DNA of 64,000 nt, from contig JAUYKI010000017.1 of NCBI GenBank assembly GCA_030700025.1, forward strand, positions 2,748 through 66,747, written 5' to 3'. Positions 5,804-46,300 of this stretch are shown here, one piece after another. A model generated the notes under the pieces. It did no database searches and was not told the origin of the DNA. It saw only the letters and a program-made list of their open reading frames with translations. The stretch's first letter is position 1. Every line of letters begins with the position of its first letter. The translations under genes were made by a program, and so were the position numbers. The stretch is from a bacterium. Lineage in GTDB: Bacteria; Patescibacteriota; Minisyncoccia; UBA6257; 02-FULL-45-10c.

Positions 5804-6092
5804 GAACCTATCTCAATAATATTTCCTAACCGCGTTGCTAAGATAAATGCCAGATTTCAAGGCACGACGACGAAATTATGGCCATAGCCACATTGAGGAG
5901 GAGTAACGAAGAAATATGGCATTTAGACCGCAACCCAAAGGGACATAGTAAATTTTGTTCATAACTTCGTTGCTCGGGCTCGACGTAGCCAAGCTACAGT
6001 CTCGCCCCTGCCTGCCGGTAGGCAGGCTCGCGCCTTGTTCTGAATCAAAATTTACTTATATCGCGTTTGGAATTATTATTGGGATAGGTTCT
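5804..6092 (+). ncRNA. Candidate structured element, ~280-nt family, copy 1 (RNA versus DNA repeat unresolved)
   Basis: 24-nt terminal arms pair (5804-5827 with 6069-6092, 2 mismatches). P2 pairs 5844-5858 with 5911-5925 (14/15). P3 pairs 5947-5957 with 6046-6056 (11/11). Shares the core TGAGGAGGAGTAACGAAG and CTTCGTTGCTCG with the copies at 27767 and 44559. Confidence 0.5.
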
Positions 6093-6093: not shown

Positions 6094-7722
6094 ATGTCTA
6101 AGTTCTATATCACTACCTCTATTGCTTATGTTAATGCCGCCCCGCATATTGGTTTTGCGCTGGAAGCGGTTCAGGCGGACGTAGTTGCCCGCTGGCATAA
6201 GCAGGAGGAAGTCTTCTTTTTAACCGGCACAGACGAGCACGGAGCGAAAATTGCCAGGGCCGCGGCCGCCTCGCGCGGCGAGGCGCCGCCGAAAGCGAGC
6301 CTCGCCACTGGCGGGAGCCTCGCCCCAAAGGGGCGGGAAGCCGACAATAAGTTAATAAAAGAATTTGTTGATCAGCAAGCAGAAAAGTTTAAAGCGTTAA
6401 AAAGCGCGCTTAATTTATCCTGGGACAACTTCATCCGGACTTCCGACCAAAAAGTTCATTGGCCGGTGGCGCAAGAAGTCTGGAAGCGGATTGCGGAGGC
6501 GGGCGATTTATATAAAAAAACTTATCAGGGGCTTTATTGCGTCGGCCACGAAGCGTTTGTTACCCAGAAAGACTTAGTGGCGGAAACCCCGACGCTAGAG
6601 GGTCGGGGCTCCGACCGAAGCGCCGGAGATGCCTTAGTATGTAAAGATCATAAAAAAGCCCCGGAGCTTATAGAAGAAGAAAACTGGTTTTTTAAATTAT
6701 CAAAATATACGAAAGATATTGAATTGCGAATAAAGAATGATGAATTACGGATTATTCCGGAAGGCCGGAAAAATGAGGTTTTGGGCTTGCTTAAGGACGA
6801 TCCGGAAGATGGTTCGGCAAGCTCACCACAAGACGTGAGTTTCTCCCGGCCGAGCAAAGACTTAACCTGGGGCGTTCCGGTGCCGGGCGATGATTCGCAA
6901 ACCATGTATGTCTGGGCAGATGCCCTCACGAACTATATTAGCGGTTATGGCGGAGTTAAAAACTGGGAAAAGCATCCGGCGGATATCCATTTTATCGGTA
7001 AAGATATTTTACGTTTTCACGCGATCATTTGGCCGGCGATGCTTTTATCGGCAAAATTGCCCTTGCCGAAAACTATTTTTGTGCACGGCCATATTTTGTC
7101 TGACGGGCAGAAGATGTCTAAATCCTTAGGCAATGTGGTGGATCCGTTTGAATTAGTAAAAAAGTATGGTTCGGCAAGCTCATCACAAGCTGGCACAGAT
7201 GCAGTTCGGTATTTTCTTTTGCGGGAAATTCCGTCGGCGGAAGACGGCGATTTTAGCTATGAAAAATTTACCCAGCGGTATAACGCGGATTTGGCAAACG
7301 GATTAGGTAATTTTGCGGCCCGGGTTTTAACCCTTGCGAGTAATTACAGCGAATATTTTACAATTCACGCTAACCCCCAGAACGTTCACGAGGTGGTTAA
7401 TGACAAAATTAAGGAAACCCAATTATTAGCTAATAAGAAAATCACGGATTTTAAACTTAACGAAGCACTAGAAATAATTTGGAGCTTAATCCATTTTGGG
7501 GATCAGTATATAAATGAAAAAAAACCATGGGAGCGAAAGGATGAAAAAATAATAGAGGCAAATGGCGTAGCGATTCACAGTTCGGTAGCAATTTTAAATA
7601 ACGTGGCGATTTTACTCCAACCATTTTTGCCGGACACCGCGGATAAAATTACCAAGAGCATCGTTTGGGAAGAAGGTAGGCTGGAAATCCAAAAGACCGA
7701 AAATTTATTTCCGAGATTGTAA
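6094..7722 (+). CDS. metG: Methionine--tRNA ligase
   Basis: N-terminus YITTSIAYVNAAPHIGF, a KMSKS motif (KMSKSLGN) and WADALTNY. Carries several in-frame repeat-derived insertions (see findings). Confidence 0.9.
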   Translation: MSKFYITTSIAYVNAAPHIGFALEAVQADVVARWHKQEEVFFLTGTDEHGAKIARAAAASRGEAPPKASLATGGSLAPKGREADNKLIKEFVDQQAEKFKALKSALNLSWDNFIRTSDQKVHWPVAQEVWKRIAEAGDLYKKTYQGLYCVGHEAFVTQKDLVAETPTLEGRGSDRSAGDALVCKDHKKAPELIEEENWFFKLSKYTKDIELRIKNDELRIIPEGRKNEVLGLLKDDPEDGSASSPQDVSFSRPSKDLTWGVPVPGDDSQTMYVWADALTNYISGYGGVKNWEKHPADIHFIGKDILRFHAIIWPAMLLSAKLPLPKTIFVHGHILSDGQKMSKSLGNVVDPFELVKKYGSASSSQAGTDAVRYFLLREIPSAEDGDFSYEKFTQRYNADLANGLGNFAARVLTLASNYSEYFTIHANPQNVHEVVNDKIKETQLLANKKITDFKLNEALEIIWSLIHFGDQYINEKKPWERKDEKIIEANGVAIHSSVAILNNVAILLQPFLPDTADKITKSIVWEEGRLEIQKTENLFPRL

Positions 7723-7736
7723 TAACCCCGGTACTA

Positions 7737-8410
7737 AAAAGAAAAATCCCCCGACATGCGTCAGGGGAAATGATGATGGGCAACAGTTGCTTTGCAGTGT
7801 TATGAGGTATTAGCCTCTAGCCATAAAGTGGCTGTCTGTTCTGCGTTGCTTCTGTTGCCGTTGACTCGGAATTTTGTCAGGGCGGGTGGACACCGGGTTA
7901 GCTCGCGCGGCTGAAAGAAAGTCAGCCTTCTATTCCCGGCGCCACCTTTGGCAGTGAGATGGTTGTAACACCCCACCGGCCAGCAGCCTGCCCCGACTTT
8001 ACGTCGGGGTCCCCTCCGGCTTGTGACCGGAGGATGATTCCAAATAGCAGTTGCCTTTCGCAGATTATGAGCCTATTGGGCTCTGACCAAAAAAGTGGTC
8101 TTCTTTCTGTTAGCTTCTGTTATTGGATGATTCCGCCCCGACGCTTTGTAAGCCGTCGGGGATACTGCTACTTGGTGAGCCGGTCCTAAGGTAGCGAATC
8201 TTTGGTTTCCTACCCACCAAGATGATGCTTCTTATTGTAGTTAAGGAACGAAAGTAGCGCGATGTGACTCTGCAACTGTCCAGTTTGTGTTGCATCGGAG
8301 CGGAATACCCGGGTGGACGGCCCCAAGGCTCCTACGGCTCTTTGCCTGATCTCGGGTTCTTCCCGACGTCAACCAAGCATTGTAAGAACCAAAGCCAGCA
8401 TCGCTAAGTA
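7737..8410 (-). ncRNA. Candidate large structured RNA (unclassified); boundaries approximate
   Basis: ORF-poor 880-bp gap with many perfect helices. Two helices carry G-U pairs only when read on the minus strand. A minus-strand terminator sits at 7748-7767 with a T-run, and a TTGACA-N17-TATCCT match at 8439-8411 (-). Confidence 0.45.
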
Positions 8411-8603
8411 AGGATAGCACACCTCAAACCCTTTGTCAATAGCGGGTTTGCAATCTCTAAATTCTAATCCCTAATCTCTAAATAAACTCGAAGCTCAAAT
8501 ATCCGGATTTTTAAATTTTATTTTTGAGATTGGACATTGGAAATTGTTTAGAAATTAGGGTTTAGGAATTAGAAATTTATCAAAACATGTTATTATTAAT
8601 TCC

Positions 8604-9473
8604 ATGAAACTTTTTGATTCTCACACCCACGTTCAATTCTCGGCTTACGATAATGACCGCGAAGAAGTTATTAAACGCGCTCGAGAAGCGGGCGTAAAAA
8701 TGATTTGCGTGGGTACGCAGTTTTCCACTTCCGAGGCGGGGATAAAATTGGCGGAAAAATATCCGGACGATATTTGGGCGTCGGTTGGTTTTCATCCGAA
8801 TCACGCGGTGAGCGAGGGCTGGCATCACGATCCGGACGAACAAAGCGAAGCTCGGCCGGAAAAGTTTGATTCGGACCAATTGGAAAAATTAGCCCTGAAT
8901 CCGAAAGTGGTGGCGATTGGGGAATGCGGATTGGACTACTATAGAATCAGGAATGATGAATTAGGAATTAAGAATAAGCAGAAAGAAGTTTTTTTGGCGC
9001 AAGCGGAGATTGCCCAAAAATTAAATAAAGCCCTTATGATTCATTGCCGTTCCTCGGTTTTGAAAAGCCCCGAAGGTAAATCAATAAAAACTGACGATGC
9101 TTATGAAGACCTATTTAACTTAATGACCAATAACCAATTACCAATAACCAAAGTAATTCACTTTTTTGCCGGGTCTTTAGAAATAGCAAAAAAATTATTA
9201 AATGCCGGCTGTTATTTTACTTTTGGCGGGGTCATAACGTTTACCCGGGATTATGACGAGGCAATTAAATATCTTCCTTTGGACAGAATCCTTTTGGAAA
9301 CCGACGCGCCCTATGTCGCGCCGGAGCCGTACCGGGGGAAGAGGAATGAGCCGGCTTATGTTGTGGAAGTAGCGAAAAAAATGGCGGAGTTCAAAGGCGT
9401 AAGTTTGGAGAAGGTGGCGGAAGCGACCACGCAAAATAACTTGACTATTTTTAGATTATCTGATATTGTATAG
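8604..9473 (+). CDS. tatD: TatD family metal-dependent hydrolase
   Basis: Motifs FDSHTHV, GECGLDY, IHCR and ETDAPY. Confidence 0.85.
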   Translation: MKLFDSHTHVQFSAYDNDREEVIKRAREAGVKMICVGTQFSTSEAGIKLAEKYPDDIWASVGFHPNHAVSEGWHHDPDEQSEARPEKFDSDQLEKLALNPKVVAIGECGLDYYRIRNDELGIKNKQKEVFLAQAEIAQKLNKALMIHCRSSVLKSPEGKSIKTDDAYEDLFNLMTNNQLPITKVIHFFAGSLEIAKKLLNAGCYFTFGGVITFTRDYDEAIKYLPLDRILLETDAPYVAPEPYRGKRNEPAYVVEVAKKMAEFKGVSLEKVAEATTQNNLTIFRLSDIV

Positions 9474-9551
9474 GCAGTTTCACTTTGATAAGCCCTCCGA
9501 CGGGTTCGACAAGCTCACCGCGGGCAATCTTGGGGTAAAGGAGGCGCTAAC

Positions 9552-11745: not shown

Positions 11746-11891
11746 AGAAAGAGTGTTTTATTCTCCCGCTACTGTTCAAACTCCCGGCGAGAGTTTTCAC
11801 TGGGTCTCGGGCTTCGCTCTTTCCGCCTTTGGCGGAAAACCCTGCCCGCTCAGCCCTCAGCCCGCGCTACGGAGAATAAAACACTCTTTCT
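11746..11891 (+). repeat. GC-rich inverted-repeat-bounded element, copy E1
   Basis: AGAAAGAGTGTTTTATTCTCC and GGAGAATAAAACACTCTTTCT form perfect 21-nt arms. The interior is homologous to the reverse complement of 36623-36810. Confidence 0.7.
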
Positions 11892-12440: not shown

Positions 12441-14966
12441 ATGAAGTACGACTTCAAAAAGATAGAAAAAAAGTGGCAGAAGACTTGGAGTAAGAATGAC
12501 TACGCCGTCTGGCACGCGGAGGAAAAGCCCAGGGCAAGGGAAATGTATGTTTTGGACATGTTTCCGTATCCTTCCGGCGAAGGTTTGCATGTGGGCCATG
12601 TGGAGGGCTACACTGCCTCGGATATTTTAAGCCGTTATTATCGGATGCGCGGTTTTAATGTTTTGCACCCAATGGGCTGGGACGCTTTCGGTTTGCCCGC
12701 GGAAAATTACGCGATTAAAAAGAAGGTCCATCCCGCGGAAGTAGTGAAGCAAAATGTTAAGCGGTTCAAAGAACAGCTGAACAAGCTGGGCTTCAGCTAT
12801 GACTGGCAAAGGGAAGTGAATACCACCGACCCGGAATATTATAAGTGGACTCAATGGATTTTCCTCCAGCTTTTTGAAAAGGGCTTGGCTTATGAAGCGG
12901 AAGTGCCGGTGAATTGGTGCCCGAAAGATAAAACGGTTTTAGCGAACGAGGAAGTGATTGACGGCTGTTGTGAACGCTGTAGCGAACAGGTGGAAAGGAA
13001 AAATCTCAAGCAATGGGTTTTAAAAATCACGGCTTACGCGGACCGGCTTTTAAAGGACTTGGAAGATTTGGACTGGCCGGACAAAGTGAAAGAAATGCAG
13101 AAAAATTGGATCGGCCGTTCCGAGGGCGCGGAAATTGATTTTCCAGTGGCTAATTCCACTTTAAAAATAAAAGTCTTCACCACCCGGCCGGACACGATTC
13201 CGGGAGTTACTTATTTAGTGCTGGCGCCGGAACATGCGCTGATTTCCCAGCTGGACGCGAGAATTACCAATCCGAACGCGGTTAAGGAATATCTGGAAAC
13301 CGCCAGGCATAAATCGGAACGGGAAAGAATCGCCGATATCAGGCAAAAAACCGGAGTGGAATTGCGGGGCATCAAGGCCGTGAATCCTTTAACCGGAAAA
13401 GAAATACCGGTTTGGACTTCGGATTACGTTTTATCCGGCTACGGCACCGGAGCGATTATGGCGGTTCCGGCGCATGACCAGCGGGATTTTGAATTTGCCA
13501 AGAATTTCGAATTGCCGATTGTCCAGGTCATTTCCCTTACCGGACGGGAAGAGGATTTAGCGTCGGCGTACGGAGGCGACGGCATTATGATTAACGCCGG
13601 CGAAGAATTAAACGGCTTGGGCAATCAGTTAGCGAAAGAAACAATTATTGAAAAATTGGAAGCTCATAAAAAGGTAAATTATAAGCTTCGGGACTGGGTA
13701 TTTTCCCGCCAGCGTTATTGGGGAGAACCTATACCGCTTATTTTTTGTGAACAGTGTAAAAAACAAGCGGTAAATTCCAAATTCCAAACTCCAAATTCCA
13801 AACATAATGAATTTAACGAAGGCGAGATTTTAAATCCGGGCTGGGTTCCGGTGCCGGAAGAAGATTTGCCGGTAGAACTGCCGAAAGTTAAAAACTATGA
13901 GCCGACCGGTTCGGCGGAGTCTCCGCTAGCAGGGATTGATAAGTGGGTGAATGTAAAATGTCCGCAATGCGGCGAGCCGGCGAAAAGAGAAACCAACACT
14001 ATGCCGCAATGGGCGGGCTCTTGCTGGTATTATCTCGCGTATATTTTAAGTGAAAAGTTAAAAGTTAAAAGTGACAAAGATTTTTGGGATAAAAAATCTT
14101 TGGATTATTGGCTGCCGGTGGATGTTTATATCGGCGGAGTAGAGCACGCCGTACTCCATCTTTTATATGCTCGTTTTTGGCATAAGTTTTTGCATGATAT
14201 TGAAGCTGTTTCTACGAAAGAGCCGTTTCAGCGGTTGGTGAATCAGGGCTTGATTTTGGGACCGGATAATCAAAAGATGTCCAAATCCCGCGGGAACGTG
14301 GTTAATCCGGATGAGCTGGTAGAAAAGTTCGGAGCGGATTCTTTGCGGTTATATGAAATGTTTATGGGGCCGTTGGAAGACGCTAAACCGTGGCAGCCGG
14401 ACGGAATTGTCGGCGTGCATCGGTTTCTTAATCGTGTATGGAATCTAGTAGGCGAAAAGCGAAAAACGAAAAGCGAAAAGACGGACGATAAATTAGAAAG
14501 ATTATTACACAAGACGATTAAAAAAGTTACTGAAGACGTAGAGGGGCTTAAATTTAATACCGCTATTTCCAGTTTAATGATTTTAGTGAATGAAATGGAG
14601 AAGGCGGAGTCAATAGTTAATAGTCAATTGTTATTAGTTACTAAGTTGCTGTTTCCTTTTGCTCCGCATATTGCCCAAGAGCTTTGGAGCCAGCTTGGCC
14701 CTTCGGCAAGTTCAGGACAAGCAAGCTTGCTGGATCATGAAGATTGGCCGAAATATGACGAGAAATTGATTACCGAAGAAGACTTTGAGCTTTTGATTCA
14801 GGTTAACGGAAAATTGCGCGATAAGGTTATGGTTTCAAAAAATACTACGCAAGAAGAAGCGGAGAAGTTGGTTTTGGGAATGGAAAAGATTAAAGAGTTT
14901 GTCGGCAAAGCTAAGCCTAAAAAAATAATTTTTGTGCCAGGCCGGTTAATTAATATTGTGGTTTAG
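12441..14966 (+). CDS. leuS: Leucine--tRNA ligase
   Basis: HVGHVEGYTASD (HIGH-type motif), KMSKSRGN and the CP1 editing region. 841 aa. Confidence 0.93.
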   Translation: MKYDFKKIEKKWQKTWSKNDYAVWHAEEKPRAREMYVLDMFPYPSGEGLHVGHVEGYTASDILSRYYRMRGFNVLHPMGWDAFGLPAENYAIKKKVHPAEVVKQNVKRFKEQLNKLGFSYDWQREVNTTDPEYYKWTQWIFLQLFEKGLAYEAEVPVNWCPKDKTVLANEEVIDGCCERCSEQVERKNLKQWVLKITAYADRLLKDLEDLDWPDKVKEMQKNWIGRSEGAEIDFPVANSTLKIKVFTTRPDTIPGVTYLVLAPEHALISQLDARITNPNAVKEYLETARHKSERERIADIRQKTGVELRGIKAVNPLTGKEIPVWTSDYVLSGYGTGAIMAVPAHDQRDFEFAKNFELPIVQVISLTGREEDLASAYGGDGIMINAGEELNGLGNQLAKETIIEKLEAHKKVNYKLRDWVFSRQRYWGEPIPLIFCEQCKKQAVNSKFQTPNSKHNEFNEGEILNPGWVPVPEEDLPVELPKVKNYEPTGSAESPLAGIDKWVNVKCPQCGEPAKRETNTMPQWAGSCWYYLAYILSEKLKVKSDKDFWDKKSLDYWLPVDVYIGGVEHAVLHLLYARFWHKFLHDIEAVSTKEPFQRLVNQGLILGPDNQKMSKSRGNVVNPDELVEKFGADSLRLYEMFMGPLEDAKPWQPDGIVGVHRFLNRVWNLVGEKRKTKSEKTDDKLERLLHKTIKKVTEDVEGLKFNTAISSLMILVNEMEKAESIVNSQLLLVTKLLFPFAPHIAQELWSQLGPSASSGQASLLDHEDWPKYDEKLITEEDFELLIQVNGKLRDKVMVSKNTTQEEAEKLVLGMEKIKEFVGKAKPKKIIFVPGRLINIVV

Positions 14967-17530: not shown

Positions 17531-17630
17531 GTTTTTCCCCGTGCTGAGCTTGTCGAAGCGCTCGATTCACTTTTCAATCTGCGTTAGCAATACTATTATG
17601 ACAGCCGTTAAGTGTCAATTGTTAAAAGTT

Positions 17631-27147: not shown

Positions 27148-27280
27148 AAACAAACACTCCGCATAGCGGGGTGTTTTACTTTGGCTTGTCCTGCCTGCCC
27201 TGAGTCGTATCGAAGGGAGTTTGCTGGCAGTGAGCTTGTCGAATCTGCCGAAGGGGCTTGCGTTGAGCAAGGTCGAAGTG

Positions 27281-36622: not shown

Positions 36623-36810
36623 AGAAAAGAAACTTTATTCTCCGTAGCGCGGGCTGAGCCTGCCTGCCGGTAGGCAGGGGCTGAGCGGGCAGGGTGTCCC
36701 GCGAAGCGGGACGAGCGAAGCCCGAGACCCAGTGAAAACTTCCCTCACTCTTGTACAAAAGTGAGGGACTGGGAGTTTGAACGGTAGCGGGAGAATAAAG
36801 TTTCTTTTCT
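36623..36810 (-). repeat. GC-rich inverted-repeat-bounded element, copy E2 (inverted relative to E1)
   Basis: AGAAAAGAAACTTTATTCTCC and GGAGAATAAAGTTTCTTTTCT form perfect arms. Homologous to E1, with two nested hairpin insertions (36659-36678, 36741-36768). Its end overlaps the comFC stop codon. Confidence 0.7.
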
Positions 36811-37507: not shown

Positions 37508-37750
37508 GTCTGTTATACTAATAATAGATTTAGAATAAGGCAATGGATTCCAATAACTAATTTCTAATATCTAATTTCTAATAAAATGACCGAAATCACA
37601 AACCACAAGCACCAAATCACAAACAAGCACCAATGACCAAAATCATAAATTTAAAACCCGTTTGGAATTTCTATTATTTGAATTTAGAATTTGTTTGTAA
37701 TTTGAGATTTGTAATTTGGAATTTTATCAGAAATTGTAAATTGTAAATTT

Positions 37751-38812
37751 ATGTCTTTTTTTGAAAAACTTCTTCATAACAAAACTTATTTCGGCGTGGA
37801 TATCGGCACGACCTCTATTAAAATTGTGGAATTAAAACAGGGAGGCCAGAAGCCGGGCCTGAAAGATTATTGCGTTTTGGAAAGCTACGCGCATCTGGAA
37901 AAATTTAACGCGGCCATTCAAACCAGCAATTTAAAAATGCTGGACCAGAAAACCGCGGAATATTTGAAAACCGCGATTCAGCAGATAGAGTCTAAAGACA
38001 TTGAAGCCATTGCTTCGGTTCCGACTTTTTCCGCTTTTACTACTTTGATTGAAATGCCGGCTATGTCGGAGGCGGATACGAGCAAGGCCATGGCATTCCA
38101 GGTTAGGCAGTATGTTCCTTTGCCGATTTCGGAAGTAACCACCGACTGGATAAAAATTATGGAAAAAAAGGATTCTGCCGGCAATTTAATCCAGCAAGTT
38201 CTGCTGATTTCCATTCCGAATGAAATTATTAATAAGTATAAAAATGTTTTTCAGTTGGCGGGCGTGAAATTAATCGCTTTAGAAGTGGAAGGATTGAGTT
38301 TGGCGCGGGCGCTGACTCTTGGTTCGCCGGAAGTTTCGCTGATTGTGGATATCGGATCCCGGTCTACCAGTATTCTTATCGCCCAAAACGGCTTTTTGAA
38401 GTTTGTCAGCCAGACGGATTTCGCCGGCAGTTCCTTAACGCAGAATTTGGCTGCCGGAACCAGCCTTTCTCCGCAGGAGGCCGAAGAAATGAAACGGCAG
38501 AGGGGCATTGTCTCGGGGGAGTTATCCACACTGCTGATACCGGTGCTGGATGCTATAATAAATGAGACGAGACTAGTCAAGGAAGATTTTGAAAAGAACT
38601 ATAAAGAGCCGGTCCAAAAGCTTATTTTGACCGGAGGCGGGGCTAATCTGAGCGGCATTGAGAAGTACTTTGGCGAGCAATTGGGCTTGCCGGCCGTTAA
38701 GGGCAATCCGCTGTCACGGGTGGATTATCCGGAAGAATTAAACCCCTTGCTTGGAGAATTGAATAATACTTTGGCGATTGCCGCCGGACTCGCTTTAAGG
38801 GATGTACACTAG
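37751..38812 (+). CDS. pilM: Type IV pilus assembly protein PilM (actin-like ATPase fold)
   Basis: YFGVDIGTTSIKIVEL N-terminus, 353 aa, first gene of the pilus cluster. Confidence 0.85.
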   Translation: MSFFEKLLHNKTYFGVDIGTTSIKIVELKQGGQKPGLKDYCVLESYAHLEKFNAAIQTSNLKMLDQKTAEYLKTAIQQIESKDIEAIASVPTFSAFTTLIEMPAMSEADTSKAMAFQVRQYVPLPISEVTTDWIKIMEKKDSAGNLIQQVLLISIPNEIINKYKNVFQLAGVKLIALEVEGLSLARALTLGSPEVSLIVDIGSRSTSILIAQNGFLKFVSQTDFAGSSLTQNLAAGTSLSPQEAEEMKRQRGIVSGELSTLLIPVLDAIINETRLVKEDFEKNYKEPVQKLILTGGGANLSGIEKYFGEQLGLPAVKGNPLSRVDYPEELNPLLGELNNTLAIAAGLALRDVH

Positions 38813-38830
38813 TTAAAAAAATAAATTGTA

Positions 38831-39373
38831 ATGGCGCTATTAAATCAAAAACCAATGGAGCACTACGTGCCGGAAACACCGGTTGCCGGAACACCGTGGC
38901 GCCTTTTTACTTACGCCGGATTGGCATTTTTGGCGTCTTTGTTGATTTATCTGGGATTAAGCATGGGCTATAGCGCTTACTTAAGTTCCCGGATTACCGC
39001 GGTGGAACAGCAATTAAAACAATTGGGAACTTCCATTTCCAAAGAAGATCAGGATAAGTTTGTCCGATTTTATTCCCAGCTGGTTAACTTTAATAAGCTT
39101 TTAGATAATCATATTTTATCCGCCGATACATTTTCTTTATTGGAAAAAAATACCAATCAAAAAGTCCGTTATACTAATTTTGATTTAAAAATTGACGAGC
39201 GGAAGCTTACTTTAGACGGTTCGGCTCTTTCTTATGAAATTTTGGCGCAACAGCTGGCGTCTTTTGCCGCCGATCCCGGCGTAGAGAACTACATGCTTAA
39301 TCAATCGCAAATGAGCGATGGAAGCGTAAAATTCAAGGCGGTATTAATATTAAAAAAGGAAGTTTTAAAATAA
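38831..39373 (+). CDS. pilN: PilN-like pilus assembly protein
   Basis: Single TM followed by a coiled coil. Position after pilM. Confidence 0.55.
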   Translation: MALLNQKPMEHYVPETPVAGTPWRLFTYAGLAFLASLLIYLGLSMGYSAYLSSRITAVEQQLKQLGTSISKEDQDKFVRFYSQLVNFNKLLDNHILSADTFSLLEKNTNQKVRYTNFDLKIDERKLTLDGSALSYEILAQQLASFAADPGVENYMLNQSQMSDGSVKFKAVLILKKEVLK

Positions 39374-39378
39374 GATGA

Positions 39379-39504
39379 ATCCCACACATAACAAAGACTA
39401 TAGGATATTTAAGCTAATAACTATGATAGTAGAATTAAAATGTCACATTAAATTAAAAGGCAAGGATTTGCGGAAAACTTCGCAGTCTTTGTTATGTGTG
39501 GGAT
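39379..39504. repeat. Inverted-repeat-bounded intergenic cassette abutting the pilO start
   Basis: ATCCCACACATAACAAAGACT (39379-39399) is the perfect 21-nt reverse complement of 39484-39504. ATGAA occurs at both outer junctions. Confidence 0.75.
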
Positions 39505-40078
39505 GAAAGCTTCTACTCAAAGAGCCTTGGGATTGTTGGGAACCGGACTATTGTTTGTCGGAGCGGCGGCGATTTTTGCTTTTTTATCGGTTCCGGCTTA
39601 TCAGGACATCCAGGATTTGAAATCCACGCTGTCGTCTAAATCAACATTATTTCAAAATCAATCCCGCGATTTGACCCAGGTTCAAAACTTGTTATCGCAA
39701 TATCAGGGAGTGGTCCGGCTGGAAGAATCTTTAAATTTGGCTCTGCCTACCAAAGAAGAGTCCGGAAGCATCGTGAATCAGCTGGATGTTATTACTAAGT
39801 CCAACGGCGTTTTAATTAAATCCCTCGGGCTGGATTATGTTCCGGCCGGACGGACCGCCGGGACCGCTTTGGTAAAAAATGTTTCTACTTTGCGGCTGAC
39901 AATAAAATTAGCCGGTTCTTATTCCGCGTTTAAAAAAGCTTTAGCCGCGCTGGAAACCAATATTCGCATCATGGATTTAGTGAGTTTGAAGATGGAGCCG
40001 GTTAGCGCCGCGCCCGGCCAGGAATCCGCGGATTTATTTGATTACACCTTAGTTATTAATACTTATTATCAATTGTAA
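39503..40078 (+). CDS. pilO: PilO-like pilus assembly protein
   Basis: TM followed by a coiled coil. ATG 39503 chosen at the end of the repeat arm; ATG 39494 lies inside the arm. Confidence 0.5.
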   Translation: MKASTQRALGLLGTGLLFVGAAAIFAFLSVPAYQDIQDLKSTLSSKSTLFQNQSRDLTQVQNLLSQYQGVVRLEESLNLALPTKEESGSIVNQLDVITKSNGVLIKSLGLDYVPAGRTAGTALVKNVSTLRLTIKLAGSYSAFKKALAALETNIRIMDLVSLKMEPVSAAPGQESADLFDYTLVINTYYQL

Positions 40079-40101
40079 AATTTATTAGAGATTTAAATAA
40101 T

Positions 40102-40392
40102 ATGGCAATTACATTTGAAAAAGAAAAAAAACCGTTTGGCATTGTTCGGCTTGTTATCGTGATAGCGGCGGTGGTGTTTATTGTCGGCGGAGCCTACTTT
40201 TTATTCTTCGCTTCAACTCCGGGCATAGAAGCTTTAGTTCCTTCGGAACAAAGGTTAGCCACCCAGATTTCTAAATTAGAATTGAATACCCAGCCGGCCG
40301 TGGAAGCTTTTACTTCTAACCGCCTTAAAAGATACGCCGGTCCGCCTTCGGTTGGACAAGTTGGCAGATTAAATCCATTTGTCCGATTTTAG
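40102..40392 (+). CDS. Small single-TM pilus-cluster protein
   Basis: 96 aa with TM VRLVIVIAAVVFIVGGAYFLFF. Confidence 0.55.
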   Translation: MAITFEKEKKPFGIVRLVIVIAAVVFIVGGAYFLFFASTPGIEALVPSEQRLATQISKLELNTQPAVEAFTSNRLKRYAGPPSVGQVGRLNPFVRF

Positions 40393-40398
40393 GAATGG

Positions 40399-40518
40399 AT
40401 CCCGTTAGAGATAGGCCGTCAAAGGCGGCCGTAGCTCGTCCGTTCTAATGGCGCTCAGAGTTTAAAATAAAAACAAAGGTTAATAATATAAATCTAATTT
40501 AGTTATCTCTAACGGGAT
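40399..40518. repeat. Inverted-repeat-bounded intergenic cassette (CCCGTTAGA family)
   Basis: ATCCCGTTAGAGATA (40399-40413) is the perfect reverse complement of 40504-40518. ATGGAT occurs at both outer junctions. Confidence 0.75.
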
Positions 40519-42250
40519 GGATGCTCAAGTTTTACTTAAAGCTCTTGTTGATAAGGAACTTCTAAAACAGGATCAGGCGGATAAGCTGATTCAGGAATCT
40601 TCGGCTGGGCAAAAATCCGCTGAAGATTTAATTTACGAAAACCGGCTGGTGGACGAAACCGAAGTGGCGAAAACCAAAAGCCAGCTTTTAAAAATACCTT
40701 ATAAGAAAATTTCGGCGGATACTCTGGATAAAGAATTTTTAAAAGTTATTCCGATTGAAACCGCCCAAACTTATAAAATAATTCCTATTTCCCGGACGGA
40801 AAATATGCTGGTGGTGGGAATGGTGAATCCGGACGACCAAAAAGCCCAGGACGCGCTCCGGTTTGTCGCTAAGCAATTGCACTCCAATCTTGGAGTTTAT
40901 TTGATTTCACACGGCGATTTGGACGCAGTCTTAAAAAAATATTCTCCGTTTAAAGATGAAGTAGAAGCGGCAGTGCGGGCTTTGGGGACTAGGCCGGGCA
41001 GGAAAGTCGGCCAGGCAATTCAACTGGAAGAGGGAACCGCGGTTACGGAAGAAGCGCCGGTAATTAAAATTGTCGCTTCAACGCTTAGAGAAGCGGTCAA
41101 CGTCGGAGCTTCGGACATTCACGTTGAGCCAGAGCGGGAAAAATTCCGGATTCGTTTCCGGATTTCCGGAGATTTGCAGACCATCAGCGAAATGCCGATT
41201 GAATTGCACCAGCCGATAGTTTCCCGCATTAAAGTTATGTCCAAGTTAAAATTAGATGAAAACCGCGTTCCGCAAGACGGCCGGTTTCGCAGCCAGGTAT
41301 CGGGCCGGGACATTGATTTCCGGATCGCGACTTTTCCAACTCCAGCCGGAGAAAAAGTGGCAATCCGGGTTCTGGATTCTTCTACCGGCTTACGGACTTT
41401 AAATGAATTGGGATATAGCGATCGGAATGTAAAAATTGCCATGGAGGCGATTGAGCGCCCGTTTGGCACCGTGGTCATTACCGGTCCGACCGGTTCGGGA
41501 AAATCCACCACTCTTTATTCGTTGATGCAGATTTTAAATCAGCCGGACGTTAACATCGTCAGCTTGGAAGATCCGGTGGAGTATTATATTGACGGCGCCA
41601 ACCAGTCGCAGGTTCGGCCGGAAATCGGCTATGATTTCGCCGCCGGTTTGCGGCAAATTTTGCGGCAAGACCCGGACGTGATTATGGTTGGAGAAGTGCG
41701 GGACGTGGAAACTGCCACTTTGACCATCCACGCCGCTTTAACCGGACACATCGTATTAACCACCTTGCACACTAATAATGTAGTGGGCGTAGTGCCCCGC
41801 TTATTGGATTTAAAAGTAGACGCGTTTTTATTGCCGCCGGCGGTAAATTTGATGGTGGCCCAGCGCTTGCTTTCCAAGCTTTGCCCGAAATGCAAAAAGC
41901 CCGAACCTGCTCCGGGAAATATCGCCGAAATGATCAAAAAAGAATTGGAAAAATTGCCGGCAGACGTCAGGGCGGAATTAAAATCTAAAGAACCGTATAA
42001 AATCTATCGGTCGGCCGGATGCGCTTCTTGTAAAAATAAAGGGACAGCCGGGCGGATGGCCATTTCGGAGCTTTTAAAAATGACTCCACAATTGTCGGAA
42101 ATTATCAGCGCCGGCCCGACCGAGAACCGGATTTTAGAAGAGGCTAAGCGCCAAGGAATGGTAACGATGCGGCAAGACGGAATTATTAAAGCCCTGGACG
42201 GATTATTGGGAATGGAGGAGGTATTGCGAGAGACTGCGGAGCTGACCTAA
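40517..42250 (+). CDS. pilB: Type IV pilus assembly ATPase PilB (GspE family)
   Basis: Walker A GPTGSGKST, Asp/His boxes and a tetracysteine motif CPKC...CASC. Confidence 0.92.
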   Translation: MDAQVLLKALVDKELLKQDQADKLIQESSAGQKSAEDLIYENRLVDETEVAKTKSQLLKIPYKKISADTLDKEFLKVIPIETAQTYKIIPISRTENMLVVGMVNPDDQKAQDALRFVAKQLHSNLGVYLISHGDLDAVLKKYSPFKDEVEAAVRALGTRPGRKVGQAIQLEEGTAVTEEAPVIKIVASTLREAVNVGASDIHVEPEREKFRIRFRISGDLQTISEMPIELHQPIVSRIKVMSKLKLDENRVPQDGRFRSQVSGRDIDFRIATFPTPAGEKVAIRVLDSSTGLRTLNELGYSDRNVKIAMEAIERPFGTVVITGPTGSGKSTTLYSLMQILNQPDVNIVSLEDPVEYYIDGANQSQVRPEIGYDFAAGLRQILRQDPDVIMVGEVRDVETATLTIHAALTGHIVLTTLHTNNVVGVVPRLLDLKVDAFLLPPAVNLMVAQRLLSKLCPKCKKPEPAPGNIAEMIKKELEKLPADVRAELKSKEPYKIYRSAGCASCKNKGTAGRMAISELLKMTPQLSEIISAGPTENRILEEAKRQGMVTMRQDGIIKALDGLLGMEEVLRETAELT

Positions 42251-42284
42251 CCAATAACCGCCGACTAATGATATTATAAAGTGT

Positions 42285-43352
42285 ATGGCTGATTATAAGG
42301 CGAGATTAATAGATTTACTTTCCGAGGCGGTCAAGCAAGACGCTTCGGATTTGCATATTGCGGTAGGTCAAAAGCCGATGCTTCGGAAGGACGGAAGTTT
42401 GGTAGCTTTAGAAAGTGAATCGGTTCTGAACCCTAAGGACGCCGAAGGATTGGTGTTGGCGTTATTAAACCCTGATCAAAAAAACAAATTCTTGGAAGAA
42501 AAGCAGTTAGATTTTGCGTATGACCTGGATGGCAGAGCCAGGTTCCGTATTAACGCCTATTTTCAAAGAGGATTTATGTCGGCGGCGCTCCGTTTAATTT
42601 CGGCGAAAGTTAAAACATTGGAAGAATTGGGCTTGCCGATGGTGTTGAGGGAATTTGCCAAATTATCCCAAGGGCTCTTGCTGGCAGTCGGTCCGGCTGG
42701 ACAAGGAAAGTCCACGACTTTAGCGGTGGTAGTAGATGAAATCAATCGCCAGCGCGCCGACCATATTATTACCATTGAAGACCCGATTGAATATTTGTTT
42801 GAACAAAATAAAAGCATTATTTCCCAGCGGGAAGTTCGTTTGGATACTTTAACGTTTCACGACGCCTTGCGATCGGTTTTGCGGCAGGATCCGGATGCAA
42901 TTATGATCGGTGAAATGCGCGACGCGGAATCTATTGCCAGCGCTTTAACCGCCGCGGAAACCGGCCATTTGGTTCTTTCCACCTTGCATACTAATTCGGC
43001 TTCTCAGACTATTGACCGGATTGTGGATAGTTTTCCGTCCGGCCAGCAGCCGCAAATTATTTCTCAGCTGGCATCCACTTTGATAGGCATTGTTTCCAAA
43101 AGATTAATTCCTAAAATTGGCGGCGGACGGGTTCCGGCTTGCGAAATTATGATAATGAATCCGGCAATCCGGAATTTAATCCGGGAAAAGAAGTTTTTCC
43201 AGATAGATAACGTTATTGAAACCAGCAAAGGCGAGGGCATGATCAGCTTAAACCGTTCTTTATCGGAGCTGGTGAAGGCCAAGCAAATTACTCCGGCGAA
43301 CGCGGAATTATATTCCATTAGCCCGAAAGAATTAAAATTGATGTTAAAATGA
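42285..43352 (+). CDS. pilT: Twitching motility (retraction) ATPase PilT
   Basis: GPAGQGKSTT Walker A, 355 aa, PilT-type length. Confidence 0.9.
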   Translation: MADYKARLIDLLSEAVKQDASDLHIAVGQKPMLRKDGSLVALESESVLNPKDAEGLVLALLNPDQKNKFLEEKQLDFAYDLDGRARFRINAYFQRGFMSAALRLISAKVKTLEELGLPMVLREFAKLSQGLLLAVGPAGQGKSTTLAVVVDEINRQRADHIITIEDPIEYLFEQNKSIISQREVRLDTLTFHDALRSVLRQDPDAIMIGEMRDAESIASALTAAETGHLVLSTLHTNSASQTIDRIVDSFPSGQQPQIISQLASTLIGIVSKRLIPKIGGGRVPACEIMIMNPAIRNLIREKKFFQIDNVIETSKGEGMISLNRSLSELVKAKQITPANAELYSISPKELKLMLK

Positions 43353-44557
43353 AATTTAAATACGTTGCTAAAACTAAAACCGGCGAGCTGCAAACAGGAT
43401 TTATTGAATCGCAGGACCGCAATTCCGCCACTAGCGCTTTGGTTAGCCACGAGCTGGCAGTTTTAAGCTTAGAATCCGCGGATGTGCCAAAGTGGTACGA
43501 ACAATTTTTAAATTTATTTAAAAGAGTAAGCAGTACCGACCTGATGGTTTTTACCCGCCAATTCGCCACTTTATTGGATGCTAAAATTTCCTTGGGCGAT
43601 TCTTTAAAAAATCTTCATCGCCAAACCCGCAATGTTGCCTTAAAAGAAGCGGTATTTGATATTTCGGCGGACATTGAAGCCGGCTTGTCTTTATCGCAGG
43701 CCTTGGAGCGGCACTCCGCGATTTTTCCGGACTTCTACGTTAACATGGTGCGTTCGGCGGAAATTACCGGCCGGATGAGCGAAGTTATGATGTTTTTGGC
43801 GGATTATCTGGAAAAGACCCAGGCGACTTCCACTAAAGTCCGGAACGCCATGATTTATCCGGTAGTGGTAATTATTTTGCTGGTTGGCGTGATGCTGGTG
43901 ATGGTAGGTTTTGTTTTTCCTAAGTTAATTCCGGTTTTTGAAGAATCAAACGTGGAATTGCCGTTAATCACTAAAATAATTTTTGCCATTGGAACCTTTA
44001 TCAGCAATTGGTGGTGGCTGGTTTTGCTGGCTTCTATTGCCGGAGCTTATTTTCTGGTTTCTTACTTAAAAACCAAAGAGGGCAGGGTAGTGTTAGACGA
44101 AGTTTTAATGAAATTGCCGGTTTTTGGAACTATGCTTCGGAAGCTGTATATTTCTAGATTTGCCGAACTGACCAGCGTTTTGATAAAAGGCGGAACTCCG
44201 ATAGCCCAAAGTTTGGGAATTGCCGGCAATACCGTGGGCAGTTTTATTTATCGGGACCAGATTTTAGAAATTGCCGAAGCGGTCCGGCAGGGACAGCTGA
44301 TGTCCCAGGCGCTGGAAGAACGGCAGGTGTATTTTCCGGTTTTAGTCAGCCAGATGGTTTCCGTGGGCGAAAGCACCGGCAAGCTGGAAGAGTTATTAAG
44401 CCGGGTATCAAGCTTTTACACAAGAGAAGTGGATGACTTGGTTAATAATTTGGTAGAATTAATTCAGCCCCTTCTGATGGTAGTAATCGGCGTGGCAGTA
44501 GGAATTTTATTTGCTTCAGTATTGCTGCCAATTTTCAGCTTGGTGCAGACTTTCTAA
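43349..44557 (+). CDS. pilC: Type IV pilus platform protein PilC (GspF family)
   Basis: 402 aa with two GspF repeats and 3 TM segments. Overlaps pilT by 4 nt. Confidence 0.9.
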   Translation: MKFKYVAKTKTGELQTGFIESQDRNSATSALVSHELAVLSLESADVPKWYEQFLNLFKRVSSTDLMVFTRQFATLLDAKISLGDSLKNLHRQTRNVALKEAVFDISADIEAGLSLSQALERHSAIFPDFYVNMVRSAEITGRMSEVMMFLADYLEKTQATSTKVRNAMIYPVVVIILLVGVMLVMVGFVFPKLIPVFEESNVELPLITKIIFAIGTFISNWWWLVLLASIAGAYFLVSYLKTKEGRVVLDEVLMKLPVFGTMLRKLYISRFAELTSVLIKGGTPIAQSLGIAGNTVGSFIYRDQILEIAEAVRQGQLMSQALEERQVYFPVLVSQMVSVGESTGKLEELLSRVSSFYTREVDDLVNNLVELIQPLLMVVIGVAVGILFASVLLPIFSLVQTF

Positions 44558-44558
44558 T

Positions 44559-44830
44559 GAACCTATCCCAATAATAATCCTCAAACGCGTTGCTAGTATA
44601 AATTGAAAATTTCTAGGCCTGCCGAGGAGCTTGTGGCCATAGCCACAGTGAGGAGGCAGAACAACGAAATTTTCAATTTAGACAGCAACCCCAAGAGGGA
44701 TACAGCCAATTTTATCCATAACGTCGTTGCTCGTCGAAGATATAGCTTACGCTATAAATCTTCTCCTCGCGTCTAGTTCTGAATAAAATTGGCTAATATC
44801 GCGTTATGGGATTATTATTGGGATAGGTTC
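44559..44830 (+). ncRNA. Candidate structured element, ~280-nt family, copy 2 (best preserved)
   Basis: P1 22/22, P2 15/15, P3 12/12, two hairpins and conserved cores. See the finding for coordinates. Confidence 0.55.
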
Positions 44831-44932
44831 TATGTTACACTTATTAAAGGTCGGAAATAAGATGTAATACCAATATACGAATTATTCGTATCATTAGTAT
44901 GAATTAGTATATTAGTATCTCATTATAAATAT

Positions 44933-45382
44933 ATGAAAAATAAAAAAGGTTTTACATTAATAGAAATTTTAATCGTTATCTCCATTATCGGGCTTTTGGC
45001 CTCGGTAGTGTTGGTGAATTTGGGAGGTTTTAGGGCTAAAGGAAGAGATTCGCGCCGGATTGCGGACTTACGGACTTTGCAAAATACCTTGGAACTTTAT
45101 TTTGGAGTTAACAATAAGTATCCAAGCGCCATAACGGAATTAATTAGTCCGGAATTGGGAGTTACCAGGTTACCTCAAGATCCAGGCACTACTTTGGATT
45201 ACTCCTATTGTTATAAAAATGACAGCGGCGGCAATCCAACCAGTTATATTGTAGGCGCTAAGTTGGAGGGTAGAAATGTGGCTTTGGATTCCGATGAAGA
45301 TGACACCGCTGGCTACACTTGCAGCGCGGCCACGGATTGTTCTGACGCGGCGAATGTCTGGGGTTACTGCATAAAGTTCTAA
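44933..45382 (+). CDS. Type IV pilin (major pilin candidate)
   Basis: Prepilin leader MKNKKG|FTLIEILIVISIIGLLA, with C-terminal cysteines. Confidence 0.9.
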   Translation: MKNKKGFTLIEILIVISIIGLLASVVLVNLGGFRAKGRDSRRIADLRTLQNTLELYFGVNNKYPSAITELISPELGVTRLPQDPGTTLDYSYCYKNDSGGNPTSYIVGAKLEGRNVALDSDEDDTAGYTCSAATDCSDAANVWGYCIKF

Positions 45383-45389
45383 GGATTTT

Positions 45390-46175
45390 ATGGCCGCGGT
45401 ATTTCTATTTGTCTTTGGCCTAGTCATAGGAAGCTTTTTAAATGTGCTGGCATTTCGCTACGATCCGGATCAGCCGTTTTTTGGCTTGAAAAGATGGGGC
45501 GGCCGTTCTCATTGTTTGTTTTGCTCACAGCAATTGAAGTGGTATGAGCTGATTCCGATCCTCAGTTTTATTATTCAGGAGGGCCGTTGCCTGGTGTGCC
45601 GTAAAAAACTTTTTTGGCAATATCCTTTGGTGGAATTGGCCAGCGGGCTTACTTTTTTTCTGCCTTATTATTTTTATAATTCCGCGAACGAAGCCTCTTA
45701 TTTTATTACCGCGTTTTGGATTCTAATTTTCTTGATTTTTATTTTAATCTGGGCGATTGACGCGCGGATTTCCGTAATTCCGGACGAATTGAATTTCTTT
45801 TTAGGGCTGTTGGGAGTCGCTTTATTAGACATGACTAATGCCAGCCGGGTGATTTGGCTTAATCATTTTTGGGCCGCTCTGGCGGGCGCGTTATTCTTCG
45901 GAGCGATTATTTATTTCAGCGAGGGGCGGGCAATGGGCGGCGGAGATTTAAAAATGGCGGTGGCGCTCGGTTTAATTTTCGGCTGGCCGAATCTTGTCTA
46001 TATTTTGGCGGTAGCCTTTGTAGTGGGAGCTTTTTGGGGCCTGACGCTGATGGGATTAAACAAGAAAAATTCCAAAGACGCCGTGCCCTTCGGGCCATTC
46101 TTGATTCTCGGTTCGCTGGTGATATTTTTCTTTGGAGACGTTTTGATTTCCGCTTATTGGCGGTTGCTGATCTAG
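45390..46175 (+). CDS. pilD: Prepilin peptidase (A24 family)
   Basis: Polytopic. Zinc-finger-like CLFC...CLVC and a GGGDLKM active-site region. Confidence 0.88.
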   Translation: MAAVFLFVFGLVIGSFLNVLAFRYDPDQPFFGLKRWGGRSHCLFCSQQLKWYELIPILSFIIQEGRCLVCRKKLFWQYPLVELASGLTFFLPYYFYNSANEASYFITAFWILIFLIFILIWAIDARISVIPDELNFFLGLLGVALLDMTNASRVIWLNHFWAALAGALFFGAIIYFSEGRAMGGGDLKMAVALGLIFGWPNLVYILAVAFVVGAFWGLTLMGLNKKNSKDAVPFGPFLILGSLVIFFFGDVLISAYWRLLI

Positions 46176-46300
46176 TAGTGTTAAATATCTTAAATAAGAA
46201 ATAATCTTACCTATACTTATTCTCGCCATGGCGAGAATAAGTATAGGGCAGGATAGTTTAAGCTTGGTCTAAGCTTAAACTAAGTTCTATTCCGGCTTCA

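Follow-up and report, generated by a model that had tools for sequence, protein, structure and literature searches.

Among described repetitive DNAs, the closest counterparts of the sequences considered here are the Rickettsia palindromic elements (RPEs; Ogata et al. 2000), which lie between genes and also in frame within unrelated housekeeping genes (PMC10969869, PMC3184786), and which are palindromic, about 100–150 bp long, code for a conserved peptide and occur in Rickettsia only (PMC10969869). The DNA described here, referred to throughout as the window, is a 64,000-nt stretch from a bacterium of the Patescibacteriota (assembly GCA_030700025.1, contig JAUYKI010000017.1, positions 2,748 to 66,747), and its metG gene, encoding methionyl-tRNA synthetase (MetRS; 542 aa, 6094–7722, forward strand), is host to four short in-frame insertions. 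The inserts are conserved as DNA sequence or as hairpin, the peptide not being the conserved entity, and we judge it somewhat probable that they represent minute DNA modules, selfish or neutral, that have been copied into new places and are tolerated as translated loops.

Several other classes of short repeats bear comparison. [quoted passage not shown] No description of the present elements of the candidate phyla radiation (CPR), of the 22-mer discussed below or of the encoded peptides was found in the open-access text of the literature. The DNA uptake sequences (DUS) of Neisseria and the uptake signal sequences (USS) of Pasteurellaceae have cores of 9–12 nt, occur about once per kb, are derived by substitution and are family-specific, the family having an uptake receptor in common. 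Fungal mitochondria contain mobile GC clusters and double-hairpin elements, which are likewise short and GC-rich hairpins within lower-GC genomes and are sometimes found in frame in protein genes.

The product of ORF 6094–7722 matches Pfam PF09334 (tRNA-synt_1g) at 3.6e-85, in two stretches split around residues 60–86, and its best solved relatives in the PDB are the MetRS of Brucella, Aquifex, Mycobacterium and Thermus (down to 1.6e-95). The protein is identical to one encoded on a 98.9-kb contig of a metagenome-assembled genome (MAG) at NCBI, the next relatives being from Candidatus Harrisonbacteria and other Parcubacteria of the CPR, and its 542 aa compare with mostly 470–500 aa (about 480) in these relatives. 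The MetRS comparison set comprises 120 sequences, the window protein and 119 Parcubacteria homologs; in a scan of GTDB genomes for related metG loci the best identity among the matches listed, mostly distant MetRS, was 58%. Collected DNA loci of relatives and of word carriers are designated by L-numbers, and proteins in the homolog sets by P-numbers.

Four segments of metG are confirmed as true in-frame insertions, all four being gaps in the Brucella, Aquifex and Mycobacterium MetRS and in most of the 119 Parcubacteria homologs. All are on the forward strand: ins1 (residues 58–81; 6265–6336, or to 6345 with its altered flank; AASRGEAPPKASLATGGSLAPKGR) is carried by six of the 120 proteins; ins2 (residues 163–182; 6580–6639; AETPTLEGRGSDRSAGDALV, where the baseline is V-DGK-C) by about 18; ins3 (residues 239–246; 6808–6831, the feature extending to 6834; DGSASSPQ, 24 nt) by the window alone; and ins4 (residues 359–366; 7168–7191; GSASSSQA, 24 nt) by ten. 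The insert lengths are 24, 24, about 51–60 and about 72–81 nt, and every version in every lineage (among them 24, 33, 45 and 48 nt) is stop-free and divisible into whole codons. An intein, intron or translational bypass element, being removed from RNA or protein, would need neither property; there is likewise no Rfam match. The closest relative, L001 (about 80% identity), has exact empty sites for ins1, ins3 and ins4, and shares ins2, within which it carries an additional nested 33-nt hairpin. A predicted insert-bearing peptide is YGSASSSQAGTDAVR, whose insert-less form would be of the KYGTDAVR type, and DDPEDGSASSPQDVSFSR is a second predicted string of this kind. The reading of the sequence alone from which this work started (the sequence-only reading) had proposed these four insertions; the sequences it quoted lie where it placed them and are correctly translated, its words and hairpins exceed shuffle expectation, and its proposal that segments of leuS and gatC are insertions also stands (see below).

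An AlphaFold (AF2) model built on the 120-sequence alignment (mean predicted local distance difference test score, pLDDT, 90.4) predicts that all four insertions lie in loops. ins1 is modeled as coil between helices 51–59 and 78–100 (pLDDT <50 at residues 69–76), ins2 as coil between strands 161–163 and 181–183 (about 65–78), ins3 as coil after helix 223–234 (<50 at residues 237–244) and ins4 as coil between helices 351–357 and 364–378; the low-confidence coil segments of the model coincide with ins1–3. ins4 directly follows the KMSKS helix, and ins2 is in the knuckle of the connective peptide (CP) domain.

ins3, ins4 and a segment of leuS belong to family A, an unstructured unit of about 23–24 nt, (A)TGGTTCGGCAAGCTCAYCACAAG, that is read GSASSPQ and is stop-free in five of its six frames; within genes it persists nearly always in this Gly/Ser/Pro/Gln frame. 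The 22-mer GGTTCGGCAAGCTCAYCACAAG is present at 6811–6832 (the ins3 word GGTTCGGCAAGCTCACCACAAG, its register ambiguous by 1–2 nt) and at 7168–7189 (the ins4 word, differing by one C>T change), two matches in the window against none in 100 shuffles. The core TTCGRCAAGCTCA with at most one mismatch has seven matches against 0.19 expected, at 274 (reverse strand), 6813, 7170, 9505, 14702, 17545 (reverse) and 27231 (reverse). An intergenic relative, GGTTCGACAAGCTCACC (9503–9519, forward), lies between tatD and the next gene with four mismatches to the 22-mer, and the leuS word CCTTCGGCAAGTTCAGGACAAGCAAGC (14700–14726, forward; five mismatches) is in frame and encodes PSASSGQAS, the PSASSGQ portion being missing from aligned Thermus LeuRS and five Parcubacteria LeuRS. 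An intergenic copy of the core, TTCGACAAGCTCA (17545–17557, reverse), precedes the start codon of ORF 17530–17075 by 15 nt, and three tandem word-like units, TTCGACCTTGCTCAACGCAAGC, TTCGACAAGCTCACTGCCAGC and TTCGATACGACTCAGGGCAGGCAGGACAAGC (27150–27275, reverse), lie between a tRNA-Ala gene and a terminator, the third resembling a two-unit version of ins4 in L085. The description of the inserts as palindromic elements holds for ins1 and ins2, whose RNA folds are better than those of shuffles (z = -2.4 and -2.0, with -3.6 for the gatC block described below), but not for the GSASS words, which fold no better than shuffles (z = +1.4 for ins3, 0.0 for ins4 and +0.45 for the leuS word).

The ins3 site is an exact empty site, GAR GAY, in all eight other metG DNAs examined, and the ins3 22-mer has the same core as ins4 of L086, one base off that of L002. 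Near-exact copies within the 64 kb are limited to those of ins3 and ins4, 357 nt apart in the same gene, and clustered copies are also found in L094, L099, L161 and L164; ins3 is most simply a recent local copy.

The GSASSPQ word had been taken for a repeat of this genome's own, which it is not: an exact scan of JGI metagenomes, with R/Y allowed at two variable positions, finds the 22-mer in at least 120 contig stretches, Acidobacteriota included. The 120 stretches listed reduce to 106 distinct contexts, about half of them without a long ORF. Among the matches listed, 59 contexts fall within an ORF of at least 150 aa, and the word is read there as GSASSPQ (44), LVVSLPN (7), FGKLTT (4), CGELAEP (3) or VRQAHHK (1). 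Its host proteins, read by eye, include MetRS at the ins4 site, AlaRS, HisRS, DnaK and DNA polymerase I (PolA), and further CTP synthase, a DegT-type aminotransferase, a Mur ligase and a succinyl-CoA-synthetase-like protein. Sites are shared between lineages, among the matches listed, in HisRS (three lineages), the C-terminal tail of DnaK (four to five) and the aminotransferase (three); in the HisRS empty-site comparison, the class II synthetases of the collected loci are a different enzyme. The finding is thus real and more general than was first held, and is not private to one metG.

Loci with the exact word span 31–69% GC. L147, at 66% GC, encodes an ATP synthase beta subunit about 89–91% identical to proteins of Candidatus Acidiferrales/Acidobacteria, which places the exact word in an Acidobacteriota contig, beyond the Parcubacteria; L171 encodes dihydroorotate dehydrogenase and a protein with a type IX secretion sorting-domain-like C-terminus (read by eye), neither typical of CPR. 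The window and nearly all of its relatives come from metagenome assemblies, and chimeric joins or mis-assembled repeats could in principle have produced the insertions during assembly or binning. Such artefacts are scarcely credible here: each genic copy is flanked on both sides by the same conserved gene, in frame, and the same insert appears in NCBI, ENA, JGI and Logan assemblies. The GC content on either side of the word agrees (mean difference 0.03), and the word-carrying contigs are therefore not chimeric joins. The exact 22-mer is missing from IMG/VR, PLSDB plasmids and GenBank phages, and its only match in E. coli genomes is a chance one in neuB (E = 0.5); an origin in universal rRNA or tRNA, or in a known plasmid or phage, is unsupported by these searches.

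Copies in the collected DNA are either exact or nearly so, or have at least five mismatches, with few having two to four, a count that is biased by the route by which the loci were found. Those with five or more mismatches represent further sub-families, CCTTCGGCAAGCTCAGG(G/A)C being an example. The peptides VRQAHHE, FDKLRANG and SLSKHE are presumably frequent among the spurious ORFs found in MAGs of many phyla, and we take them to match the sister words GGTTCGACAAGCTCACCACGAAC; the word family is probably larger than counted here. Some intergenic copies of the 22-mer are in the loop of bigger, lineage-specific inverted repeats. Larger arrays also occur, namely five 24-nt units head-to-tail in L174 (3110–3230), a 108-nt tandem repeat in L161 (1050–1500) in which each unit is the word plus a hairpin, and a locus in L139 (4010–4130) in which the two halves of the 22-mer are expanded separately. 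Additional in-frame low-complexity or hairpin inserts are present in relatives, in L002 (leuS, tatD), L087 (leuS), L106 (polA) and L118 (mur ligase), with the recurring peptide words FAQGSGGQ, APTPAEGEVGGPT, SPALRSPAYRTGRLGEGG, IASEAKQS...APRNDK and PSTRAKPGTRAELGSG, which indicates that more element families than three exist.

Conservation at the DNA level is most evident at ins4, which reads GGT TCG GCA AGC TC(A/G) (C/T)CA CAA G(C/T)T in the window and in L002, L086, L107, L111, L130 and L205, in lineages with about 55–70% protein identity to one another. Codons for identical residues are themselves identical in 93% of cases within ins4 against 52% in the 30 codons on either side (seven alleles). 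The effect is large, although the pairs are non-independent and the computed p-value is therefore too favorable. The Tyr codon preceding ins4 is TAT in all filled alleles examined (about eight lineages), against 16 TAC and 6 TAT in 22 empty-site matches, two of which, as second KMSKS-type matches within one locus, are probably not from MetRS; the T therefore either arrives with the insert or is needed by it.

Frozen synonymous sites of this kind, at the same site and between synonymously saturated flanks, raise the alternative that the words and hairpins are selected functional nucleic-acid signals (an mRNA structure, a protein- or RNA-binding site, or a recognition sequence for DNA-handling machinery such as that of uptake or recombination) that reached the same sites of related lineages by recombination or drive and not by transposition. 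The exactness of the 22-mer across 31–69% GC and two phyla, the scarcity of partly decayed copies, and the retention of ins2 pairing on the sense strand through compensatory and G-U changes (see below) all favor it. The window also contains a complete type IV pilus cluster (37751–47806) encoding PilM, two T2SSE ATPases, PilC, pilins with N-methylation motifs and a prepilin peptidase, which bears on any DNA-uptake hypothesis and could serve DNA uptake. We nonetheless regard a functional signal as rather unlikely. Two copies in 64 kb is a density far below that of the DUS/USS type, the segments are discrete 24-nt indels rather than substitution-built motifs, most orthologs are without inserts, and a lineage-specific uptake word would not be common to Patescibacteria and Acidobacteriota. 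Intergenic copies of the 22-mer show no orientation bias relative to neighboring genes (upstream, 15 same and 11 opposite; downstream, 15 and 13), contrary to an RNA-level target, and a sense-strand RNA target site for family A was dropped on this ground.

Across the 106 contexts of the 22-mer of family A there is a T at -1 in 92% and an A at -2 in 70%, nothing is conserved 3', and both metG copies are preceded by AT. Context statistics give the unit as (A)TGGTTCGGCAAGCTCACCACAAG, and empty-site comparison gives the inserted 24 nt as T + 22-mer + N or as 22-mer + NN. Such a fixed 5' boundary and fixed length, with neither target-site duplication (TSD) nor terminal inverted repeat (TIR), could reflect templated insertion, a particular mechanism for mobile elements in which a discrete oligonucleotide of ~23 nt or the 3' end of an abundant small RNA is copied into nicks or breaks by a reverse transcriptase or repair polymerase, the template crossing phyla together with the enzyme; a longer candidate RNA would end ...CUUGUGGUGAGCUUGCCGAACCA. 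The unit begins TGG, by our own reading the complement of a 3'-terminal CCA, and the head-to-tail 24-nt arrays of L174, the sub-repeat expansions of L139 and the identity of the sequence in different phyla fit as well. Against this, a Pfam scan of 40 window ORFs gave no reverse transcriptase, a master RNA gene was not found either, there is no match to tRNA 3'-end geometry (by hand) or to E. coli rRNA or tRNA, and one template does not explain several related but differing words, so that we consider this origin improbable. A mimic of a tRNA 3' end was rejected separately, the GGTTCG-to-CCA spacing being 7 nt too short in a hand check.

The other two inserts are GC hairpins. ins1 belongs to family B, a GAGCCTCGCCCC-loop-GGGGCGGGAAGC hairpin shared with gatC, and is the longest GC island of the window, with an RNA fold of -54.6 kcal/mol; it has hairpins at 6267–6285, 6295–6317 and 6315–6341, the core module being expanded by an internal 18-nt duplication. 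The 12-mer GCGAGCCTCGCC is at 6295 and at 60562, with a one-mismatch copy at 6313. In gatC an in-frame hairpin of this family, GAGCCTCGCCC-TGGCGAAGCC-GGGCGGGAA (60546–60590, forward), is read KGEPRPGEAGR; it is a 12-aa insertion relative to Staphylococcus aureus GatC, is unique among 113 GatC homologs, and has both arms of metG 6315–6341 in the GEPRP frame. ins1 is missing from 114 of the 120 orthologs. Where it is present, the left arm GCGAGCCTCGCC(CC) differs in its frame, the window and L003 having A-S-L-A-(P) and L084 and L088 having G-E-P-R-(P), while the right arm GGGCGGGA(A/G)GC is in one frame in all four; the arms of L088 form a stem of about 13 bp. In 2.2 Mb of CPR-rich collected DNA the ins1 word is confined to the window gatC and, in four lineages, to the ins1 site of metG, two matches in other ORFs (L010 and L049) looking like chance. 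The proposal that the inserts are built from intergenic repeat words therefore stands for family A, which is both intergenic and genic, but not for the ins1 word, for which there is no intergenic copy in the 2.2 Mb.

ins2 is the type of family C, a double hairpin of CCCGAC-loop-GTCGGG followed by CTCCGAY-loop-RTCGGAG. In the window, hairpin A is at 6587–6608 (CCCCGAC..GTCGGGG) and hairpin B at 6609–6628 (CTCCGAC..GCCGGAG). The CCCCGAC-loop-GTCGGGG motif has three matches, at 6587, 7991 and 8136, against 0.01 expected; it had been counted three times in the adjacent non-coding region, where there are two strict copies (7991 and 8136) plus imperfect ones. The ins2 DNA of five lineages folds into both adjacent hairpins, and RNAalifold on six sequences gives 14 pairs, four with a compensatory change, G-U pairs also being present. 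An example is GAC...GTC to GAT...ATC, a synonymous change coupled to a Val-to-Ile change, and this covariation is suggestive of a hairpin kept at the nucleic-acid level. Hairpin B (CTCCGACCGAAGCGTCGGAG, read SDRSVG) is in frame in the TatD of L002 and is lacking in the window TatD, and in P0124 and P0161 the GatC loop that holds the family B hairpin in the window is filled by ins2-type peptides (APTLSRGSDMEVGK, APTPKRDRGPDQSVGK), so that different families can land in the same permissive loop. A second GC-rich intergenic word family is present at 5999–6037, 11839–11874 and 36640–36730, with the hairpin CCTGCCTGCCGGTAGGCAGG at 6007 and 36659 and CTCCGTAGCGCGGGCTGAG...GGCTGAGCGGGCAGGGT at 36640 and, as reverse complement, at 11839. 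That the metG gene has gathered four micro-insertions from at least three dispersed, nucleotide-conserved module families seems to us, on balance, a likely description of the locus.

A neighbor-joining tree of the 120 MetRS proteins, with the insertion columns removed, shows the carriers of each insert to be scattered, most nearest neighbors being without it. ins4 is carried by P0001, P0010, P0022, P0036, P0037, P0041, P0048, P0064, P0084 and P0094, and ins1 by P0001, P0003, P0005, P0056, P0097 and P0100. Three of the four metG sites (ins1, ins2 and ins4) are shared hot spots, and the patchy pattern needs either many site-preferring insertions, or precise losses of an old, nucleotide-frozen insert, or very short recombination tracts. 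The presence of ins1, ins2 and ins4 at the same positions in some other Parcubacteria, together with the location of ins2 in a CP knuckle that is variable in all bacteria, would also suit ordinary lineage-specific variable protein loops, native sequence evolving under relaxed or protein-level selection, the shared DNA words being coincidental or compositional. We consider this very improbable. Exact 13- to 22-mers are common to unrelated genes and intergenic DNA far above chance, synonymous sites are frozen within ins4, nearest tree neighbors are without the segments and L001 has exact empty sites for three of them; the reading of one DNA word in two frames at the ins1 site and the metagenome census already contradict it. 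Native origin had also been said to follow if distant orthologs carried the same segments. Such orthologs exist for ins1, ins2 and ins4, yet the patchy distribution, the two-frame reading, and the frozen synonymous sites of ins4 amid scrambled flanks show that the segments are not native protein but DNA elements that recur or persist at hot-spot sites.

If the inserts are selfish or neutral modules, these would spread by copy-and-paste with machinery supplied in trans, and selection would retain only those copies that keep the frame, are stop-free and fall in tolerant surface loops. The retained copies would be translated into hydrophilic, flexible loops with little effect on the enzyme, and local expansion may follow, as in the 18-nt duplication of ins1, the nested hairpin of L001 and the two-unit ins4 of L085 and L087. 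The comparisons show that the segments are insertions, that the elements are the same at the nucleotide level, that they are dispersed over unrelated genes and genomes, that they fall in predicted loops and that every version keeps the frame; mobility, translation and neutrality for MetRS are inferred.

Several observations weigh against this account. Transposases, integrases and reverse transcriptases are all lacking among the 40 window ORFs scanned with Pfam, and flank statistics across the 106 contexts reveal no target-site duplication, microhomology or terminal inverted repeat. A given MetRS site always has the same family, the GSASSPQ word being at the ins4 site in ten lineages, whereas elements drawn at random from a pool would not be expected to do so. 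Even in lineages that are only 55–70% identical, orthologous sites have nearly exact copies, and the combination of near-exact copies with few having two to four mismatches fits purifying selection on the DNA, and hence function, at least as well as it fits repeated recent insertion. A functional signal would also account better than selfish spread for the freezing of synonymous sites and for sequence identity between phyla. Translation of the inserts, finally, is suggested by conservation of frame only.

How do these elements compare with the systems introduced above? As in RPEs, an element is both intergenic and in frame in unrelated genes (family A, with family C modules also in TatD and GatC), and the RPEs are likewise tolerated at fold-compatible positions and thought to be selfish DNA. 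The comparison with RPE-like selfish DNA drawn in the sequence-only reading is in this sense a fair functional analogy, but membership fails: at 24–75 nt the elements are 5–10 times shorter than RPEs of about 100–150 nt, which excludes them by length, and half are non-palindromic. Family A moreover spans phyla, the same protein sites are struck in many lineages, and the peptide is not conserved, ins1 being read in two frames and family A in five. The size class and the GC-rich imperfect hairpins of ins1, ins2 and the gatC block recall REPs and their hairpin-forming doublets (REPINs); however, REPs are extragenic with hundreds of copies per genome, whereas only a handful of the present elements, most of them intragenic, lie in the 64 kb, family A is hairpin-free, and none of the 40 window ORFs scanned with Pfam is a REP-associated (RAYT, Y1) transposase. 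MITEs have TIRs and TSDs and are at least 50 bp long, none of which features is seen here.

DUS and USS share with family A an exact short word, found in both orientations between genes, in tolerant coding frames and at orthologous positions in related species, and type IV pilus genes are present in this organism. They differ in that the words here are 22–24 nt, occur about once per 30 kb (two near-exact and about five diverged copies in 64 kb), are discrete indels and cross phyla. Palindromic amphipathic repeat coding elements (PARCELs) are likewise coding repeats with dyad symmetry, with a punctate cross-clade spread suggesting horizontal transfer and with shuffling within genomes. PARCELs are 25-residue units in long tandem arrays, in ORFs without assigned function and many of them membrane-targeted, whereas the inserts here are single, of 8 to 25 aa, and in housekeeping enzymes. 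The double-hairpin elements of fungal mitochondria are likened by description only, ins2 being literally a double hairpin, and the genetic system differs (an organelle as opposed to a bacterium).

The elements form a widespread and apparently undescribed class, micro-insertions that uncultivated bacteria carry in essential genes, and family A stands a substantial chance of being new in category. More tentatively, and with less than even confidence, we suggest that family A is a new mobile element, the smallest known, written into genomes of different phyla, kept letter-perfect and recolonizing the same loops, with families B and C forming a second, structure-defined class. On this proposal the unit of ~24 nt, a whole number of codons, would be non-palindromic, lack inverted repeats and target duplication, and possibly be oligonucleotide- or RNA-templated; the loops recolonized would be those of MetRS, HisRS, AlaRS, DnaK and PolA, and hairpin families B and C would act likewise in Parcubacteria.

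The gene order around metG (M16 peptidase, AI-2E transporter, metG, tatD, DUF5658, with leuS slightly further downstream) is kept in relatives, and the rest of the 64 kb is occupied by housekeeping functions and the type IV pilus cluster. The metG leader (5805–6092) contains nested long inverted repeats, AGAACCTATCTCAATAATATT pairing with AATTATTATTGGGATAGGTTCT and AGTAAATTTTGTTCA with TGAATCAAAATTTACT, and its word ATTATTGGGATAGGTTC is found again at 44559 and 44811; it may be a leader structure or a MITE-like element, and a whole-window Rfam scan at gathering threshold gave no T-box match in it. Between metG and tatD there is a non-coding region of ~700 nt (7740–8450) with many GC hairpins, an internally duplicated module (CAGTTGC..GCAG.TTATGAG..AAAGTGG..GCTTCTGTT) and a 23S rRNA-like motif, GGTCCTAAGGTAGCGA. 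Its core, GGATGATTCCGCCCCGACG...GGTCCTAAGGTAGCGAA...CCAAGATGATGC, is kept with compensatory changes in L001 (5450–6250), and L002 is without the region, metG directly adjoining tatD there. Rfam has no family for it, returning only tRNAs and meaningless miRNA matches (gathering threshold for the whole window, E-value threshold for 7700–8620), and the region is probably an undescribed structured RNA.

The window also contains about 24 A/T-rich tandem arrays with a period of exactly 7 and four to five copies each, the unit differing by place, which we take to be reminiscent of the heptamer short tandemly repeated repetitive (STRR) sequences of cyanobacteria. Intergenic arrays are at 1780, 3368, 5743, 8548, 27364, 34599, 35632 and 37552–37749; eleven, at 2969, 8944, 9122, 13772, 14048, 14452, 14608, 15584, 58100, 59220 and 59423, are within ORFs, in frame in housekeeping genes (a class II aminoacyl-tRNA synthetase, tatD, leuS, glmS and ligA). 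The ligA array at 59220–59252 is a 14-aa insertion relative to E. coli LigA and that at 58100 a 4-aa insertion, and the leuS array at 13772 lies within a 27-aa insertion common to L087. The 12-mer ATCCCGTTAGAA and its reverse complement form inverted pairs about 100 bp apart that bracket short intergenic regions just upstream of genes (sites at 60, 1851/1948, 27136, 40399/40508 and 62364/62473). A 144-nt tandem repeat (53619–54076; 2.8 copies, 78% identity) in the gene of a Kelch-repeat protein is ordinary repeat-domain coding.

If these modules are what they appear to be, a measurable share of odd low-complexity loops (GSASSPQ, SDRSVG, GEPRP...GREA and the like) in the proteins of uncultivated bacteria would be DNA-deposited rather than protein-evolved. 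This would affect how proteins are aligned, how phylogenies and structure predictions are made, and how spurious ORFs of MAGs are annotated, where the other frames of the family A word give peptides such as VRQAHHK, FGKLTTS and VVSLPNH. For protein engineering, the hot-spot loops chart naturally where aminoacyl-tRNA synthetases and other core enzymes tolerate insertions. Should the modules be mobile, their machinery must be widespread and unlike known transposases; should they be functional, the family A word would be an unrecognized cross-phylum signal. The word is exact and easily counted, which makes the choice between mobility and function directly testable.

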